Sequence record: OR062945.1
DNA length: 64,000 nucleotides
Source: Escherichia phage 308Ecol101PP
Reading direction: 5' to 3' (one strand)
In this document: piece by piece, positions 36,579 through 48,508 of the stretch
Layout: every line of letters starts with the position of its first letter
Position numbering within the stretch: the first letter of the stretch is position 1
Program-made: the position numbers and the translations under genes
Notes under the pieces: model-generated
What the model saw: the letters and a program-made list of their open reading frames with translations, nothing else
The model's database searches: none
Told to the model about the DNA's origin: nothing

Positions 36579-36866
36579 ATGAAAACCTATAAAGAATTTA
36601 TATCACCTGTTGCTAACGTTTCTACTCTGACCGAAGCAACCCTTACTTCCGAAGTTATTAAAGCAAATAAAGGACGTGAGGGTAAACCAATGATTAGTCT
36701 GGTTGACGGCGAAGAAGTAAAAGGTACTGTTTACTTAGGGGATGGATGGTCTGCTAAGAAAGATGGCGCTACTATTGTTATCTCTCCGGCTGAAGAGACT
36801 GCACTGTTTAAAGCTAAGCATATTTCTGTAGCTCAGCTTAAAATTATTGCAAAAACTCTTCTGTAA
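36579..36866 (+). CDS. internal-protein-like protein with capsid-targeting N-terminus
   Basis: 95 aa starting MKTYKEFI...; gp21-type L-x-E site at STLTE. Confidence 0.6.
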   Translation: MKTYKEFISPVANVSTLTEATLTSEVIKANKGREGKPMISLVDGEEVKGTVYLGDGWSAKKDGATIVISPAEETALFKAKHISVAQLKIIAKTLL

Positions 36867-38102: not shown

Positions 38103-38618
38103 ATGAATATTTGTTTAGGCAGTACAATTCCTAAGGGTTACGTAATTGATGTCACTACTTGGGAAAATGACGGCGACAACTATAAAACCAAAACATTATT
38201 TGGTGTAGAAGAGCATGAGCTCCAACAGTTTAAATATCTCTTAAAGAAATTTAAGAGCCGTCATTCCAGCACTAAAGCTGAACGTTACTGTGGTAATACA
38301 CTATTCAGTGATTGTTCGCTTTTAATCTATGAATACTTGGTTGAAGGACTGTTCTCAGACCAGCTTTATCCAGAATTCATTAAAAAGGTCTTTGGTATCG
38401 AAGTTGACCTTGGTGACAAATCCGAAGAAGATGAAACACGTGTATTCGACCTATTCTTTGAGAGCGGAGATGAGATATCTCAAGGACTTATTGATATTCT
38501 TGGCTATGCTTCCGAATACTATGATTACGATTTCTTGCGTGTAGTTGAACGTGTTGAATTCGCTTATATTGAAGAAGAAATTGTTTTGCCGACTGTTAAA
38601 ATGATTGATTTGCTTTAA
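38103..38618 (+). CDS. hypothetical protein
   Basis: 171-aa ORF. Confidence 0.55.
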   Translation: MNICLGSTIPKGYVIDVTTWENDGDNYKTKTLFGVEEHELQQFKYLLKKFKSRHSSTKAERYCGNTLFSDCSLLIYEYLVEGLFSDQLYPEFIKKVFGIEVDLGDKSEEDETRVFDLFFESGDEISQGLIDILGYASEYYDYDFLRVVERVEFAYIEEEIVLPTVKMIDLL

Positions 38619-38697
38619 GAATTATGTGTTATTATTAATTCATACCCTCTATTACCAAAGGTGCTCTAAAGTGCCTTTCATAATAGAAAGTTATTAA

Positions 38698-38772
38698 GGC
38701 CCTGTAGCTCAATGGGAGAGCTGTCAGCTCATAACTGATAGGTAGCTGGATCGAAACCAGCCAGGGTCACCA
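38698..38772 (+). tRNA. tRNA with CAT anticodon (Met or lysidine-type Ile), encoded CCA
   Basis: Hand-folded cloverleaf: acceptor GGCCCTG/CAGGGTC, D stem GCTC/GAGC, anticodon stem GTCAG/CTGAT with loop CTCATAA, T stem GCTGG/CCAGC. Confidence 0.85.
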
Positions 38773-38775
38773 ATT

Positions 38776-38852
<77 letters not shown>

Positions 38853-38870
38853 ACTTCAAGTGAGGAAAAT

Positions 38871-39215
38871 ATGAAAGGCAATATTTATTTGGTAGTTCAT
38901 GATTTAACGTTTTATTTTAACGAACAGGATACAGTTATTTCCGACCGGTTGATTAATTCGTTATATCAACACGCTGATTACGTTTATTTTCAAAATGAAT
39001 TCGGACATTGGAAGTTTCTTAAAAACCGTTCCGGGTTAACTAGTTTTGAATACTTTGACCGTAAAGACCTTTTAAACGAAATTCCATTACAACATCGGTT
39101 CCAGAAACGCGAATCACTATACTATTGTCGCCATATACCAAATGCTGAATGTGTTTATGAAGCGATTAATCTATGGCGTAGACGTAGAGAGCAAATTGAT
39201 GATATGCCAAAATAA
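38871..39215 (+). CDS. hypothetical protein
   Basis: 114 aa from ATG after GAGGAAA RBS. Confidence 0.55.
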   Translation: MKGNIYLVVHDLTFYFNEQDTVISDRLINSLYQHADYVYFQNEFGHWKFLKNRSGLTSFEYFDRKDLLNEIPLQHRFQKRESLYYCRHIPNAECVYEAINLWRRRREQIDDMPK

Positions 39216-39518
39216 GAAGCCGGGTCGCTACCGGCAAGTCGTCGGACTGATGTTCCCTGAGTAAGGACTGGTCTTAATAAATCTTTATGATTTGTTAATA
39301 TCCCCTTACATCACAGCAGAAACGGCGCAAAGAATTATCGATTCGAGGAAATATCTTTGCCGTAAGCCGAGTAGCGTTTTTGACGGAACGTTCGGATATG
39401 GTCGAGATATGGCCTTTTAAAAATATTGAGTAGCGTCAACTGCTTAATAACCGGGTTCGAATCCCGGCGTTTCGTACAAACACTTGCCTTAGTAGGTGGA
39501 AACCCCGACAAGGTATAT

Positions 39519-39548
39519 AGCCCCTTCCGAAAGGTTGGGGCTTTTTTG
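39519..39548 (+). terminator. rho-independent terminator (module A)
   Basis: AGCCCCTTCC-gaaa-GGTTGGGGCT followed by TTTTT. Confidence 0.6.
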
Positions 39549-39556
39549 TATAAATA
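39549..39556 (+). promoter_or_regulatory. late promoter
   Basis: TATAAATA 36 nt upstream of ATG at 39592. Confidence 0.45.
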
Positions 39557-39591
39557 TAGTAAACAATAAACCTACTTTCTAAGGACCATCA

Positions 39592-40218
39592 ATGTATACT
39601 TTTAATGAATTTTTAGCCGAAACGGAAGTAATCACCGAAGCCGGTGTACGTATGACAAAAGAGAAATGGCAAGCTGCTTACGATGCTATTTCTGGTACAA
39701 AAACTAGTACAGAGTTTTTCAAAAACGTTCAAGCCATGTATGGTATCGACACTTCCAGCCAAAAAGAATATTACAGAGCTTCTAAAGCATTCAAAGATAT
39801 TGTTAGTGGCGGTGTTTCTGCTAAATCGGGTTCGCCTAAAGTAAAACCTGCTCCTACCGTTCCTAAACCTGCGACCCCTAAAGCAATAGCAAAACCTGAG
39901 CCTAAGCCGGAAGTAAAAGCAACTCCTAAAGCTCCTGCTCTTAAGTTTGATACTTCTAGCCTGGAAAAAAAATATAAACAACTATCTTCGCTTGTTCGTG
40001 ATATTGAATCCGATACATCTTCACTCGTTCGTGAATTCAACAGTCTTCGTAATGGCCAACATATCAACAACCTTGATACCCCAGACCTTTATCGTCTTTA
40101 TTTGACTATTGAAGGTTTGAAGTACACTCAACCACTTCATGATGAGATTAAAGAAAAACTTCGTCAGGCAGGTCGTTTGGCTGCTGACGCTGCTCAGTAT
40201 GCAAAAACTCGTAAGTAA
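39592..40218 (+). CDS. internal-protein-like protein, Pro/Lys-rich central repeat
   Basis: 208 aa starting MYTFNEFLAE; KPAPTVPKPATPKAIAKPEPKPEVKATPKAP. Confidence 0.5.
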   Translation: MYTFNEFLAETEVITEAGVRMTKEKWQAAYDAISGTKTSTEFFKNVQAMYGIDTSSQKEYYRASKAFKDIVSGGVSAKSGSPKVKPAPTVPKPATPKAIAKPEPKPEVKATPKAPALKFDTSSLEKKYKQLSSLVRDIESDTSSLVREFNSLRNGQHINNLDTPDLYRLYLTIEGLKYTQPLHDEIKEKLRQAGRLAADAAQYAKTRK

Positions 40219-40223
40219 AGAAT

Positions 40224-40245
40224 GGGGACTTCGGTCCCCTTTAGG
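40224..40245 (+). terminator. rho-independent terminator (module B)
   Basis: GGGGAC-ttcg-GTCCCC followed by TTTAGGGGG. Confidence 0.55.
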
Positions 40246-40270
40246 GGGTCTATAACTTACTGAAAAAGTT

Positions 40271-40307
40271 GTTTACTTCTTCCCTAGATGTGTTACTATA
40301 GTCCTAT
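40271..40307 (+). promoter_or_regulatory. early promoter (PeSL-type)
   Basis: GTTTACTTCT...TGTTACTATAGTCCTAT...GAGGAG. Confidence 0.5.
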
Positions 40308-40327
40308 TAAAACATGAGGAGAATATT

Positions 40328-40831
40328 ATGAGTCTTTACACTGAACTGAATAAAAAATCTGAAGAATCCGCTGAAACTATTTTTAAAAACGTGCAAAAGC
40401 GTATTTTAGAAAAGATGTATAACACTGCAGCTAAAGGTGAAAAATCTTGCCGGTTTCCGATGAGGTGTTCTTCCGATTTATGCGCAAATACTATTGAATG
40501 GCTGGAAAGTGAAGGTCTTACGGTAGAGAAAAACCCGGCGTCTTCTATTGACAGTGAATCATATATTAGTATTTCTTGGGATAAATCAAGGGTAGAAGAG
40601 AAAGATGGTGATTGGGTTGTAGATGTTAAAACTTCTGATGGCGGACGTTCTGTTGAAGTTTCAGCTGTAGTTAAAGGTACCCACGAACAAAGGACTTGGG
40701 GATGGGGTGGTGAAGAAAAAGAAATTGTTCTTAGTGTGATTGCCAGGTCAACTAGTAATAAAATTGCACAAAGCATCATTGACGCTGCAATTGCTGAAGC
40801 AGAAAAAATTTGCAAAATTAAAAATAAATGA
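40328..40831 (+). CDS. hypothetical protein
   Basis: 167-aa ORF. Confidence 0.55.
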   Translation: MSLYTELNKKSEESAETIFKNVQKRILEKMYNTAAKGEKSCRFPMRCSSDLCANTIEWLESEGLTVEKNPASSIDSESYISISWDKSRVEEKDGDWVVDVKTSDGGRSVEVSAVVKGTHEQRTWGWGGEEKEIVLSVIARSTSNKIAQSIIDAAIAEAEKICKIKNK

Positions 40832-42427: not shown

Positions 42428-42791
42428 GCCCTGGGCATACGAATACAAACGTAAATTAATTCCTAATGAAGTGTTGTTTGGTCCTATTTTAGCTTTAGCA
42501 TTTTTAATCTTTATGATTATAGGAGCTATTTTAGATTCCAATAAAGTTATATCGTCTGATGCAGCATTTTCATTAATGTTCGTCGCACCACTTATTGTAC
42601 CGTTTTTATTAATGCCTATTAATTGGGTAGGATATTGGCACCAAGGCCGTCATCACAGAGCCCGATTAAGAGAATGGAAAGTTCAGTGCGCAAAAGCCCA
42701 AGCTCAATATGATGAAGCTGTTAAAAAGTATGAATATGAAGAAGCTATGGAATTCGTTAAGGAAATAAGATGCAAAAGCCTCAACTCTTAA
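42396..42791 (+). CDS. small membrane protein with conserved C-terminal tail
   Basis: 131 aa, hydrophobic segments, ends EFVKEIRCKSLNS. Confidence 0.5.
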   Translation: MSKPTLYMPIKPWAYEYKRKLIPNEVLFGPILALAFLIFMIIGAILDSNKVISSDAAFSLMFVAPLIVPFLLMPINWVGYWHQGRHHRARLREWKVQCAKAQAQYDEAVKKYEYEEAMEFVKEIRCKSLNS

Positions 42792-43129
42792 CCGTATGGC
42801 CGTCTCTTGGTGAGAACATTCTAATTTTTATTATGAGTATTGGCATGGGATTTGCCTTTGGATTAGTTGGATTTCTTATTGACGGAGTTGTGTTAGGATT
42901 TATAGGGAATACAGGTGGATTCACAGACCAATGGCAGGACCTAAGATACACCCAAGCTTTTGCATCTATCGCATCATTTTGTACTGTAGTCTATTTTTAC
43001 TACGATTTTATAAACCATAACAAGAAAAATAAAAAGGTTTACGCTTCTCAAATGATTAGTTATAATGAACTCCTAGCTAGACGTGAAAATGAAACAATAG
43101 AAAACTTTATTAAGGAATGTAGAAAATGA
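42770..43129 (+). CDS. small membrane protein with conserved C-terminal tail
   Basis: 119 aa, ends ENFIKECRK. Confidence 0.55.
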   Translation: MQKPQLLTVWPSLGENILIFIMSIGMGFAFGLVGFLIDGVVLGFIGNTGGFTDQWQDLRYTQAFASIASFCTVVYFYYDFINHNKKNKKVYASQMISYNELLARRENETIENFIKECRK

Positions 43130-43431
43130 GTAAGATTATTGAAATTAAAGTACCAGAGTTTAATGATGCTAAATCCGCTTCAGATGCAATTTATAAACTT
43201 CTGAATCAAGCTGAACGTATCGAAGAAGAAGCAACAAAGATCGCGGACCAATATGCTGTATCATTTTCTGTAGGTGATTATGGTAGCGGTCGTACTTATT
43301 ATCCTAAGGGTGAAATTGTATCCCAGTGGATGAAAGATGAAATTGAAAATAATGGTGGTGATGTTAAACGTGAAGGTAATGGTTACGTTATTACTGAAGG
43401 TGCTTGGGTTTCGTCTTCTGCGATGTGCTAA
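43126..43431 (+). CDS. hypothetical protein, member 1 of tandem trio
   Basis: 101 aa, C-terminus GAWVSSSAMC. Confidence 0.55.
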   Translation: MSKIIEIKVPEFNDAKSASDAIYKLLNQAERIEEEATKIADQYAVSFSVGDYGSGRTYYPKGEIVSQWMKDEIENNGGDVKREGNGYVITEGAWVSSSAMC

Positions 43432-43440
43432 GGAATCATT

Positions 43441-43713
43441 ATGTCTAAAGAACAAACCGAACTGGCTGAAGCCGTAGCAAAAATCTATGCAGCTATTGAG
43501 GCTGCCAAAGAAATTGCTGATAAACAAAACACAACATTCAACTTGTATCCAGCTTATGGTATGGGTGGAACCTATCATTCACCCGGACAACTTAAAGCCG
43601 ATCTTGAACGTTGTACAAAAAACGGCTATGCCGAATGGGCTGACGTTTACCAATACGACTACAACCTGAGCCTCGAAACTGGTGGTTGGATTGCATCTTC
43701 TCACACTTGCTAA
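43441..43713 (+). CDS. hypothetical protein, member 2 of tandem trio
   Basis: 90 aa, C-terminus GGWIASSHTC. Confidence 0.55.
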   Translation: MSKEQTELAEAVAKIYAAIEAAKEIADKQNTTFNLYPAYGMGGTYHSPGQLKADLERCTKNGYAEWADVYQYDYNLSLETGGWIASSHTC

Positions 43714-43722
43714 GGAAACCAT

Positions 43723-43920
43723 ATGTCTCGTGAATTAGATTGTGCTGTACGTACGGCAGTAGCTGCTCTGGAAAACCTGTTCCAAATTGCAACAGAAGAA
43801 CGCGAAGAAGTTACATTGTGGATTGAAGATAACGCAGGTCTGAATCTCCAGGACGCGATCTCATTATCCAATAATAGCATTACTGTTCAAGGCTGGGTAT
43901 CATCTAGTTATTCTTGCTAA
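43723..43920 (+). CDS. hypothetical protein, member 3 of tandem trio
   Basis: 65 aa, C-terminus QGWVSSSYSC. Confidence 0.55.
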   Translation: MSRELDCAVRTAVAALENLFQIATEEREEVTLWIEDNAGLNLQDAISLSNNSITVQGWVSSSYSC

Positions 43921-45541: not shown

Positions 45542-45847
45542 ATGAAATTAACAGAAACCAACCGAATTGGTCTTTTAACAATACTTGCATCACCTTTTTA
45601 CGCAGCTCTTTCTGTTGCAGTATTACAAAAGGCTTACGATATGGATGGTGTTCCTGGTTTTGTATTCTTATCACCGTTTTTGCTATTCGTTGGAGCATTG
45701 TTATTATACGCCACGACTAGTTTCGACCATAATGTCTGGGTCAATTATAAATGTAAATTGTCTGAAGAAGAACACGCAGAAGCTCGTAAAAAAGCTATTG
45801 AATCTACCAATCTAGAAAATTTCATTAAAGAATGTCGAGGAAAATAA
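45542..45847 (+). CDS. small membrane protein with conserved C-terminal tail
   Basis: 101 aa, ends ENFIKECRGK. Confidence 0.55.
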   Translation: MKLTETNRIGLLTILASPFYAALSVAVLQKAYDMDGVPGFVFLSPFLLFVGALLLYATTSFDHNVWVNYKCKLSEEEHAEARKKAIESTNLENFIKECRGK

Positions 45848-45848
45848 T

Positions 45849-46535
45849 ATGAATAGTTCTAAAGTGTTTAATAGTCAAGCTCGTGCAGTAGGTGGTTTTG
45901 CTCATGCGATTAAAAACGACCAGATTAAAAACGAGCCTATGTTCTTTAACTGCGATTTGAATTTTGCTTTTGATAATGGCGGCCCGATTACTCGTAGCTT
46001 TATCCAAAATCTTCCTGATGATTGGAAAGACTCGGATGTAGTATTTGATTCACGAGTCCACATGCTGATGCCTGGTTGGTATCCTGCTATTCCTGGATAT
46101 CACCATGATGACGTACCACGCCCAGATATTCCAACAGGACAACATTTTATTACTGCAGGACAACCTGATTATGACAACCCTCGTTACCATTCTGAACATA
46201 TTCTTGGTCTTGTTAACGCTGATGTGTGTCCTACTCATTTTGCAACAGGAACTGCAGAGTTCAGTCAGATTCCTGATGGCGAACTTATCTATCGCCAGTG
46301 GCACAAAGAAGTCCTCGAAAAAATTGAAAAAGGTGAACTAGAGAAATGGGAAGCTCCAGATCGTACTCTTCTTCAGTTTGATTGGCAAACATGGCACACT
46401 GGTTCTCGTGCAATTAGTAATGGATGGCGTTGGTTCGGACGTGTATCTCGTAATACAGACCGAGTTAAAAAGATTACCAATGAAATTCGTGTCAACGCTC
46501 AAGTTTATCTAGAATTCCCTATGGAAGGCTGGTAA
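45849..46535 (+). CDS. hypothetical protein, possible 2OG-Fe(II) oxygenase-like
   Basis: 228 aa; YHHDD and distal WHTGSRAIS...GRVS loosely fit HxD...H...RxS. Confidence 0.3.
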   Translation: MNSSKVFNSQARAVGGFAHAIKNDQIKNEPMFFNCDLNFAFDNGGPITRSFIQNLPDDWKDSDVVFDSRVHMLMPGWYPAIPGYHHDDVPRPDIPTGQHFITAGQPDYDNPRYHSEHILGLVNADVCPTHFATGTAEFSQIPDGELIYRQWHKEVLEKIEKGELEKWEAPDRTLLQFDWQTWHTGSRAISNGWRWFGRVSRNTDRVKKITNEIRVNAQVYLEFPMEGW

Positions 46536-47026
46536 TGATTAACAAAACATATTGGTCTAATATAGACGATGACAACGAAGGTATTTCATACTATTCAGTA
46601 GATTGGACGGGATGTCCATCCTACTTAGTGAAACATATTTGCCAAGAATTTAAAATCGACCAGCCAGCAGGTATTATTGTGAACAGATACATTAATGGAT
46701 ATCAACCTATCGATGAAGTAATACGAACAACTCAAGCTGATCTTGAAAAGTTTTTCAATAAGTGCCAATGGATAACAGGATGGATTATATTTGTACCGTC
46801 GGTATGGTTTTTTAGTACTAAAGTAAGTGCCTTTGCTGTACTAGATATTATCGCTATCTTATTAGCATCTACTATTGTAAGTATTATTGGTGGTATTATT
46901 GGTGGAGGTACTGTAGGCATCATTATTAATCTTGTTAAAAGTAGTTTACAGGAACGTAAAGACAAGATAAAGGCCAAGAATAATGAAGTTGAACGTTTTA
47001 TTACCGAATGCAGGAATTTGAGATGA
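46535..47026 (+). CDS. membrane protein with conserved C-terminal tail
   Basis: 163 aa, Gly/Ile-rich TM segment, ends ERFITECRNLR. Confidence 0.55.
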   Translation: MINKTYWSNIDDDNEGISYYSVDWTGCPSYLVKHICQEFKIDQPAGIIVNRYINGYQPIDEVIRTTQADLEKFFNKCQWITGWIIFVPSVWFFSTKVSAFAVLDIIAILLASTIVSIIGGIIGGGTVGIIINLVKSSLQERKDKIKAKNNEVERFITECRNLR

Positions 47027-47741: not shown

Positions 47742-48230
47742 ATGAATATATTTGAAATGCTTCGTAATGACGAAGGTCTTAGACTGACTTTATACAAAGA
47801 CACTGAAGGCTTTTGGACAATTGGCATAGGTCATTTAGTAACAAAGAACCCGTCTTTAGCTGTAGCTAAAGCTGAACTTGACAGAATGATCGGGCGTAAA
47901 TGCAACGGTACAATTACCCTTGATGAGGCTGAAAAGTTATTTAATGAAGACGTTGATAAAGCTGTTCGCGGAATCTTGGGTAATGTTAAACTTAAACCGG
48001 TATATGATTCTTTAGATGCGGTTCGTCGATGTGCATTGGTCAATATGGTCTTCCAAATGGGTGTAGCAGGCGTCGCTGGTTTTACTAATTCTCTTCGTAT
48101 GCTTCAACAGAAACGTTGGGATGAAGCGGCAGTAAATCTAGCACAATCTAAATGGTATCGTCAGACACCTAATCGCGCGAAACGCGTAATCTCAACATTT
48201 AAAACAGGAACTTGGAAAGCGTATATATGA
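47742..48230 (+). CDS. e: lysozyme (endolysin)
   Basis: 162 aa [31 protein letters not shown]..., near-identical to T4 lysozyme; GGGAGG RBS. Confidence 0.96.
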
Positions 48231-48508
48231 AAACATATAGTGAATTTTTATCAGAATCTATTCTTAACGAAGCTACTGACACATTTGCAACTAAGCTAGG
48301 TGCAGCTTTGGTTGAAGCTGAAAGTCTATTAGCACGTATTTCTGAACTTGCTAGTAAGATAGATACTCGCAAATTTGAGCGCACCAGTGATATCGTTAAG
48401 CTTGAAGCCTTGTTGCGTATGTGCGATAAACCGGAAGAAATCGCTAAGAACGGCTCGCTGATGAAACAACGTCTTGAAAAATATATTTCAGGCGCTTCAG
48501 AAAAATAG
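48227..48508 (+). CDS. internal-protein-like protein with capsid-targeting N-terminus
   Basis: 93 aa starting [10 protein letters not shown]; ATGA overlap with lysozyme stop. Confidence 0.55.

Follow-up and report, generated by a model that had tools for sequence, protein, structure and literature searches.

A Predicted Family of Internal Head Proteins with a Variant Capsid-Targeting Leader at the rnaC–e.8 Locus of T4-Type Phages

A Probable Internal Head Protein Gene

The 64,000-nt stretch of Escherichia phage 308Ecol101PP analyzed here (sequence record OR062945.1; hereafter the window, in whose coordinates all positions are given) carries on its + strand, at 39592–40218, an open reading frame (ORF) for a 208-aa protein. 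This gene probably defines a family, new among the internal head proteins of T4-type phages, whose members are made late, packaged by means of a capsid-targeting sequence (CTS), processed by gp21, and ejected with the DNA. A previous sequence-only reading of this DNA had proposed a late-expressed, virion-packaged protein, and this proposal is supported by the leader, by a conserved late-promoter motif, by a size and charge resembling those of the T4 internal protein (IP) IPIII, and by the detection of a related protein, g140, in phage fD1. CTS internal proteins are a known and diverse class, and another member will not surprise a T4 specialist. What is new is a family without a name in the databases, occupying a separate locus, with a shuffled architecture of two domains joined by a linker, and occurring widely beyond the classical T-even three.

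The Leader and Its Protease Sites

The ORF starts with MYTFNEFLAE, as first read, and this start is the first possible start codon following an in-frame stop. The first 16 residues (MYTFNEFLAE-TEVITE, then A; 39592–39639, + strand) form a putative capsid-targeting leader with predicted gp21 sites at LAE10 and ITE16. When the first ten residues of the 536 ATG-initiated ORFs of at least 50 aa in the window are scored against MKTYQEFIAE with BLOSUM62, this ORF obtains a score of 33 and ranks sixth, 5.5 standard deviations over the background (−1.8 ± 6.3); the next ORF scores 20. The first five ranks are taken by the canonical MKTY(Q/K/S)EF ORFs of the window, at 36579, 36936, 48227, 48987, and 49311, among which ORF 36579 is the IPI homolog (88% identity to T4 IPI). 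In the CTS of T4 IPIII, residues 4 and 7 are the main determinants of targeting, and residues 8 and 10 those of processing (amber suppression by Mullaney and Black 1996, reviewed in PMC9026906). MYTFNEFLAE holds F4, F7, L8, and E10, that is, all four mapped positions, and F4 is also found in T4 IPI.

The leader is much better conserved than the rest of the protein. In an alignment of 23 sequences of the family and superfamily (some positions being counted over 20 or 21), position 4 is aromatic, position 6 is E, D, or Q, and position 7 is F or I in all 23; position 8 is L, I, or V in 21 of 21, and position 10 is E in 19 of 20. E16 and the following A or S at position 17 are each present in 21 of 21. 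Ten further superfamily members, whose starts were read directly, show a leader pattern of the same kind. Outside the leader, relatives fall to 21%–37% identity. From phage to phage, the codons for the conserved leader residues differ synonymously, which indicates selection on the peptide and not recently exchanged DNA. Dhakavirus orthologs begin with MKTYNEFLNES, a sequence that bridges the variant and the canonical leaders. The rank among the ORFs of the window, the retention of the mapped positions, and the conservation across relatives thus all back the variant capsid-targeting leader of the initial proposal.

A second protease-type site, I14-T15-E16 followed by A17, lies shortly after LAE10, so that the leader end contains the (L/I)-x-E motif of gp21 sites twice, as far as motif presence goes. 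Cleavage by gp21 at an ITE site is proven for T4 Alt (ITE-6; PMC5694885), and T4 IPI also carries ITE followed by A. An extended leader of the form ...LxES-[IV]L[NST]E-A is common to the Dhakavirus-type orthologs and to window ORF 48227 (...FLSES-ILNE-A). The latter (48227–48508, + strand) is a 93-aa CTS ORF in the ipIII position that overlaps the end of the lysozyme gene e, and its body resembles Ip5 of T2 and T6.

Coding Status and Genomic Locus

The 1 kb around the ORF shares 99.1% identity with Escherichia phage vB_EcoM_JS09 (Mosigvirus, Tevenvirinae), and the window carries the T4 genes 2, 3, 1, 57A, 57B, ipI, e, and denV in the same order as in T4. By its identity, the phage thereby belongs to the Tevenvirinae, whose prohead core relies on the gp21/gp22 system; genes 21 and 22 are located outside the window. 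The ORF corresponds to JS09_035, annotated as “hypothetical protein” in JS09; WLY86049.1 of phage 308Ecol101PP has the identical protein sequence, and the product matches PHROG 2280 (function unknown) at 3e-58. A Shine-Dalgarno sequence, AAGGA, can be read at 39581–39585 (+ strand), 6 nt 5′ of the ATG. Compared with three homologs, divergence is 0.50–0.53 at third codon positions and 0.16–0.26 at first and second positions. This third-position pattern indicates coding constraint, so that the ORF is a genuine gene kept by purifying selection. Two antisense ORFs, at 39613–39981 and 39771–40070, are rejected as genes, as the codon-position pattern favors the + frame.

The gene sits between the terminator of rnaC and the e.8/e.6 block, and not in a known ip locus (57B–trna.4 or e–denV–vs.8). 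It is not the positional equivalent of T4 ipII or ipIII, which sit across gene e. T2, T4, and T6 have no gene between the rnaC terminator and e.8, just an intergenic gap, and this is plausibly why the family has stayed uncharacterized. Conservation between the window and Dhakavirus is 68% for the 208-aa protein, compared with 40%–72% for its neighbors. One can hence reject the idea of a hypervariable arms-race gene, as its conservation equals that of the neighbors.

A Conserved Late-Promoter Motif and Flanking Hairpins

An exact copy of the T4-type late-promoter motif, TATAAATA, is present at 39549–39556 (+ strand), as the sequence-only reading had stated; by its motif, it would serve as a late promoter. 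It lies 43 nt 5′ of the ATG and one base past the U-run of the upstream terminator. The window contains 16 copies of TATAAATA, against 7.4 ± 2.7 expected from shuffles. Of seven loci compared, four (the window, IME281, PG7, and fHe-Yen9-01) carry an exact copy at −35 to −43 from the ATG; in Marfa, CHI14, and EcS1, C/GATAAATA stands where the other loci have TATAAATA. Constraint on the T4 late motif is weakest at its first position. The RB69/ECML-134-type genes found at the same rnaC–e.8 locus in other phages (see following) have AATAAATA at the place of the motif, whose position is kept across six genera. Judged from its motif, the promoter is compatible with expression during prohead assembly.

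Upstream, an intrinsic terminator (39519–39547, + strand; stem-loop at 39519–39542 followed by a U-run; −16 kcal/mol, z = −2.9) ends the tRNA-Met/tRNA-Arg/rnaD/rnaC cluster and shields the gene from upstream early transcription. A homologous terminator follows rnaC in T4. Downstream, a hairpin with stem and loop GGGGAC-UUCG-GUCCCC lies 3′ of the stop codon (40224–40239, + strand; −12 kcal/mol). It is kept, with compensatory changes in the stem, in IME281 (where the stem is GGAGAC/GUCUCC), Marfa, CHI14, EcS1, and PG7. The stem is followed by UUUA, i.e., by only three U's; its z-score against shuffles is −0.8, and a terminator scan of the + strand makes no call at this position. The earlier claim of a strong terminator after the ORF therefore holds for the conserved hairpin and is overstated as to strength. 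The hairpin is a transcript 3′ end or stabilizer; as a terminator it is weak, having no more than UUU behind it.

Upstream of the next gene, at 40328, lies an early-type promoter of T4 type (GTTTAC, 17-nt spacer, TACTAT; 40271–40299, + strand). In sequence, the hairpin and this promoter (40224–40305) resemble a cassette boundary of the promoter-early stem-loop (PeSL) type, a concept put forward for modular shuffling in T4-type genomes (PMC2839356). The same layout of a hairpin and then an early promoter is found at homologous loci and before e.8 of T4. Early-type promoters, GTTTAC ... TACTAT or TATAAT, also lie upstream of the ORFs at 36579 (the IPI homolog), 36936, and 49311. Each of the other CTS ORFs of the window either has an early-type promoter with GTTTAC or shares its transcript with gene e, and none has an exact late motif. 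A canonical late-promoter motif of its own thus sets the 208-aa gene apart from every other CTS gene of the window, and it has no early-type promoter besides.

Two Helical Domains Joined by a Basic Linker

The 208-aa protein has an isoelectric point (pI) of 9.5. The computed products of cleavage after E10 and E16 have masses of 21.9 and 21.3 kDa, respectively, with a pI of 9.6–9.7 and a net charge of +11 to +13; for comparison, mature T4 IPIII* has 20.4 kDa, a pI of 9.65, and a net charge of +10. In the AlphaFold2 model, built from a shallow alignment of nine sequences (mean predicted local distance difference test score [pLDDT] of 70.8), the leader is a low-confidence helix. It is followed by a small three-helix N-terminal domain (residues 17–73; 39640–39810, + strand; pLDDT ~81–88, and about 85 over residues 20–73), a predicted disordered linker rich in Lys, Pro, and Ala (residues 74–118; 39811–39945, + strand; net charge +8, pLDDT 33–50), and a three-helix C-terminal domain (residues 119–208; 39946–40215, + strand; pLDDT ~76–89). 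The C-terminal domain is the most conserved part of the protein, and invariant columns cluster there (FDTSS...NNL-TPDLY-LYL...YTQP).

The low-complexity tract reported initially, KPAPTVPKPATPKAIAKPEPKPEVKATPKAP, covers residues 84–114. Calling it a repeat tract was loose wording: the low complexity exists at the protein level, and Tandem Repeats Finder detects no DNA repeat in it. Among relatives, the linker keeps its composition (K, P, A, T, V, and E) and its length (~30–50 aa) and not its sequence. This pattern, together with a pLDDT below 50 over residues 74–112, agrees with the suggestion of a flexible linker; nothing was found in support of the option of a cell-wall-binding tail. In solid-state nuclear magnetic resonance of T4 heads, Lys is the only residue of the internal proteins that contacts DNA phosphate (PMC3012670), and a role of the Lys-rich linker on DNA would fit such contacts.

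Database searches with the protein are little informative. Pfam gives only a subthreshold match to SIX1_SD (14.5 bits, for a cutoff of 27.4 bits), and NCBIfam only one to the TonB model NF008084 (17.4 bits over residues 80–122, for a cutoff of 315 bits). The identity with TonB is rejected, since the match covers the low-complexity tract and not the full-length model. PADLOC returns nothing for the protein, and a sequence profile search of the PDB gives nothing below E = 0.8. Fold searches yield only generic helical-hairpin matches, for the C-terminal domain, none of them informative; a WXG100/EsxA-like helical hairpin, considered as a candidate, has no significant structural match. Reading the sequence by eye, with no dedicated predictor run, reveals no long hydrophobic stretch of the signal peptide or transmembrane kind.

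A Widespread and Modular Family

A HMMER scan of 1.84 billion representative proteins retrieves only 13 clusters. With tblastn, the gene is found in 143 phage records, and it is intact, at 80% coverage or more, in at least 130 of them; these belong to Mosigvirus, Dhakavirus, Kagamiyamavirus, Winklervirus, Tegunavirus, Karamvirus, Marfavirus, and other genera. In every record examined the product is annotated as hypothetical, and never as Ip. Counting 165 records of the RB69/ECML-134 type along with these 143, related genes occupy the locus in more than 300 phage genomes. The family and its remote relatives span Mosigvirus, Dhakavirus, Tequatrovirus, Karamvirus, Kanagawavirus, Winklervirus, Jiaodavirus, and others.

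The RB69-type gene encodes a 187-aa protein that is a remote homolog of the 208-aa family (hhalign probability of 92.8%, E = 4e-7). In RB69 itself (NC_004928, 9429–9991, − strand), ORF149c and ORF148c are the two halves of one such 187-aa CTS gene (MKTYAEFLTE...). The frameshift is restricted to the RB69 record, the gene being intact in 164 other phages, including the Tequatrovirus phages ECML-134, ime09, and UFV13. The split reflects either an error in the sequencing or a pseudogene peculiar to this strain.

Domains are exchanged between members. The CTS, N-terminal domain, and linker occur with a different C-terminal domain in Kanagawavirus CIP9, Jiaodavirus W1W2-10, P0023, and P0026, and the C-terminal domain occurs with a different N-terminal domain in fHe-Yen9-01 gp153, P0025, and P0027. 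A profile made from 18 diverse members detects further subfamilies, and all the starts that were read have a CTS-like leader. Yersinia phage fHe-Yen9-01 has tandem CTS paralogs, gp154 and gp153, at the locus, and some Tequatrovirus contigs have CTS genes of 157 and 187 aa in tandem at the same place. Such tandem paralogs suggest duplication and domain exchange at a hot spot.

Detection of a Relative in Virions of Phage fD1

Yersinia phage fD1 (phiD1) has at the rnaC–e.8 locus a gene, g140, whose 157-aa product carries the leader MKSYTQFLNEAVLNEA and aligns with the core family with an hhalign probability of 91% (E = 1e-6). The sequence following E10 is AVLNEASSTEIQAVAK, and the one following E16 is ASSTEIQAVAK. 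The g140 protein has been detected with liquid chromatography coupled to tandem mass spectrometry in purified virions and is listed as particle-associated (PMC8309999, Table S3). The fPS-phage paper contains no proteome.

Proposed Mechanism and Function

The following course of events is proposed. Late transcription would start at the gene's own TATAAATA promoter and yield a near-monocistronic unit between the two hairpins, the late timing being the one expected of such a motif. MYTFNEFLAE, acting as a CTS, would attach the precursor to the prohead's scaffolding core of gp22. There, gp21 would remove the leader by a cut at LAE10, at the canonical ITE16 (before A17), or at both, ITE16 being the more probable site. 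Cleavage would leave in the head a basic protein of 21–22 kDa, with a pI of about 9.7 and a net charge of +11 to +13. The disordered Lys/Pro-rich linker would lie on the packaged DNA, and the two small helical domains may stay folded and yet be able to pass the tail with the DNA. In the new host, by analogy with Ip1–3 of T4, the protein may act before phage gene expression, either as a DNA-associated protector or as an inhibitor of host defense.

This anti-defense or DNA-protective role, drawn from analogy, is the leading guess and a tentative one. A further, more speculative possibility is that the rnaC–e.8 gap constitutes a fourth ip locus, one missed so far because T2, T4, and T6 have no gene there. 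Its modular proteins would combine a CTS, an N-terminal domain, a Lys/Pro tether, and an exchangeable C-terminal domain; the tether would hold them to the entering end of the DNA, and the shuffled helical domains would counter host defenses, whether others than GmrSD (type IV restriction) or others in addition to it. If true, this would amount to an effector system that swaps its domains and enters the cell together with the genome.

Injected internal proteins act ahead of any phage gene expression. Seen as a probable packaged protein, the 208-aa family is a concrete candidate for host-range or anti-defense screens, and its annotation is corrected accordingly. The genera that carry it are widely used in phage therapy work. 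The natural CTS variants it contains (Y2, F4, N5, L8, and the double cleavage site) are useful for the engineering of packaging in non-T4 phages. The concept of protein loading into T4-type heads is unchanged.

Evidence to the Contrary and Alternative Explanations

Several observations weigh against an internal head protein with an effector role. The leader has Tyr and not Lys at position 2, and the P1′ residue of its first site is Thr and not Ala. The early-type promoters of the other CTS ORFs of the window imply that a late promoter is no requirement of the class. Being as conserved as its neighbors, the gene is less variable than an arms-race effector would be. The fD1 data set is permissive, as it contains 113–137 of the 277 phage products along with 672 host proteins, and its list includes DenV, lysozyme e, NudE, and Tk (PMC8309999); hence the detection of g140 speaks for expression and co-purification and not for location in the head. 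A literature search for virion proteomics, N-terminal sequencing, and transcripts of this protein or its close orthologs (Mosigvirus, JS98, fHe-Yen9-01, and the locus tags) found nothing. Finally, no homology of the mature part to any named Ip was found: the family hidden Markov model matches Ip1–Ip7 only at residues 1 to ~26, and hhalign against T4 IPIII and IPII aligns the leader only (for IPIII, 26% probability over 25 columns). Since this homology stops at the leader and no fold match is informative, the intracellular role is argued from analogy. Members of the class share only the CTS, and mature homology is not required for membership (PMC3012670, PMC12373910).

Could the protein instead be an accessory of the prohead core or scaffold, of the type of T4 gp67, gp68, and gp22, acting only in head assembly or DNA condensation and either degraded or left as a counter-ion of the DNA? 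The leader, the late promoter, and the basic charge would fit this equally well. The good conservation across genera, highest in the C-terminal domain, would suit a phage-internal partner such as the DNA or the core, and a Lys-rich linker would suit charge neutralization (PMC3012670). However, beyond the leader the protein has one (L/I)xE motif only, IKE188, which is not conserved in homologs, and a single unconserved extra site makes a gp22-like degradation to peptides unlikely. Moreover, T2, T4, and T6 build normal heads and lack the gene, so it is dispensable for assembly. It also lies outside the head gene cluster; proteins of the gp22/gp67/gp68 class are acidic, whereas this one is basic; and domain shuffling and tandem paralogs look like the evolution of an accessory or effector protein. 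A core or scaffold function is therefore considered unlikely. A late protein working outside the virion, as a lysis, DNA, or envelope factor, is quite improbable. Its likeness to a CTS would then derive from shared ancestry or recombination with ip genes. This explanation draws on the indirect nature of the evidence for packaging, on the 4 of 10 leader positions that differ from MKTYQEFIAE, on a TonB-like Pro/Lys tract that could in principle span the periplasm, and on the fact that non-structural late proteins are also ‘PPAP’ in fD1. Yet the leader deviates only conservatively, with the mapped functional positions left intact, peptide-level selection on the leader across deep divergence is not explained by decaying ancestry, and a second conserved protease-type site follows. 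To this one may add the absence, by eye, of a long hydrophobic stretch, and a TonB match of 17 bits for a 315-bit cutoff that is limited to the low-complexity tract.

The idea that the ORF is no gene at all, and is either a chance ORF or a decaying remnant comparable to the split ORF149c/148c of RB69, is effectively refuted. It could invoke the RB69 record, which has at the locus a frameshifted, different, and only remotely related member. Against it stand the at least 130 records with an intact gene, the coding constraint seen at third positions, the presence of Shine-Dalgarno sequence, promoter, and hairpin, and the intact RB69-type alleles of the 164 other phages. An internal head protein thus remains the preferred, and probable, interpretation.

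Other Features of the Window

Upstream of the gene, the homologs of rnaD (species 2, ~39216–39336, + strand) and rnaC (species 1, ~39335–39480, + strand) are nearly identical to the stable RNAs of T4. An Rfam search of 38500–40400 returns two tRNAs only; there is no Rfam family for the rnaC and rnaD homologs. A mechanically called ORF at 38823–39215 (+ strand, TTG start, 130 aa) overlaps tRNA-Arg (38776–38852); its annotated homolog, JS09_034/RB69ORF150c, has 114 aa and starts at the ATG at 38871.

Downstream, three consecutive ORFs (101, 90, and 65 aa; 43126–43920, + strand) end in G-x-W-[VI]-[SA]-S-S-x-x-C, their C-termini being GAWVSSSAMC, GGWIASSHTC, and QGWVSSSYSC. They seem to be tandem paralogs of one family, marked by a conserved Cys motif at the C-terminus. 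The ORFs at 42770–43129, 45542–45847, and 46535–47026 (+ strand) have long hydrophobic stretches, appear by eye to be membrane proteins, and have the tail NFIKECR or RFITECR in common. They may be dispersed paralogs of proteins of the e.3/e.4 type.

Comparison with Known Internal Proteins

The linker invites comparison with Lys/Pro/Ala-rich basic tails, such as the C-terminal domain of histone H1, the PAKKA-type bacterial tails, and the Pro-rich spacer of TonB. Residues 74–118 are like them in their content of K, P, A, and T, in their net charge of +8, and in predicted disorder; the likeness is compositional only.

Close parallels in layout are g140 of fD1, RB69ORF149c, and gp131 of ECML-134. 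They occupy the same locus and share the succession of CTS, helical N-terminal domain, short PK linker, and helical C-terminal domain. They differ from the 208-aa protein in their shorter linkers, in an identity of 25%–28% over the hhalign alignments, and in the phages that carry them, which are Tequatrovirus or RB69 and not Mosigvirus of the JS09 type; the N-terminal domain of g140 is, in addition, of a different type.

Among the polymorphic Ips of T-even phages (Ip4–Ip7 of T2 and T6, and the variants of the ipI locus), otherwise unrelated proteins have the CTS in common, and cassettes are replaced at hot spots between regulatory hairpins and promoters. Both features are found here. A 1994 study by Repoila et al. 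is said to deal with the ipI-locus variants of T-even phages, and may name a relative. Proteins of the Ip4–Ip7 type mostly have 77–157 aa and a single domain and are located at the ipI and ipII/ipIII loci, whereas the 208-aa family is modular, has ~160–220 aa, and occupies a further locus.

The T4 proteins IPIII (Ip3), IPII, and IPI share with the 208-aa protein the CTS of about ten residues (aromatic residue at 4, Phe7, Ile or Leu at 8, and Glu10) and an (L/I)xE gp21 site. Their genes, like this one, are non-essential accessories lying among the early genes of the 57B-to-denV region. The leader described here differs from theirs in Tyr2, Phe4, Asn5, Leu8, and the second site at E16. Ip1–3 of T4 are all injected, specific inhibitors of GmrSD, and share the leader only; IPIII inhibits the GmrSD of ECOR17 (PMC12373910), a function that cannot be transferred to the 208-aa protein. 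The window has an IPI homolog and no homolog of IPII or IPIII beyond the leader, and because IPIII is lacking, the 208-aa protein fills the slot of the large basic IP. With a precursor of 208 aa, compared with 193 aa in IPIII, it has a near-identical mature mass, pI, and charge, and it departs from the T4 IPs in its locus and in its two domains joined by a disordered Lys/Pro linker.

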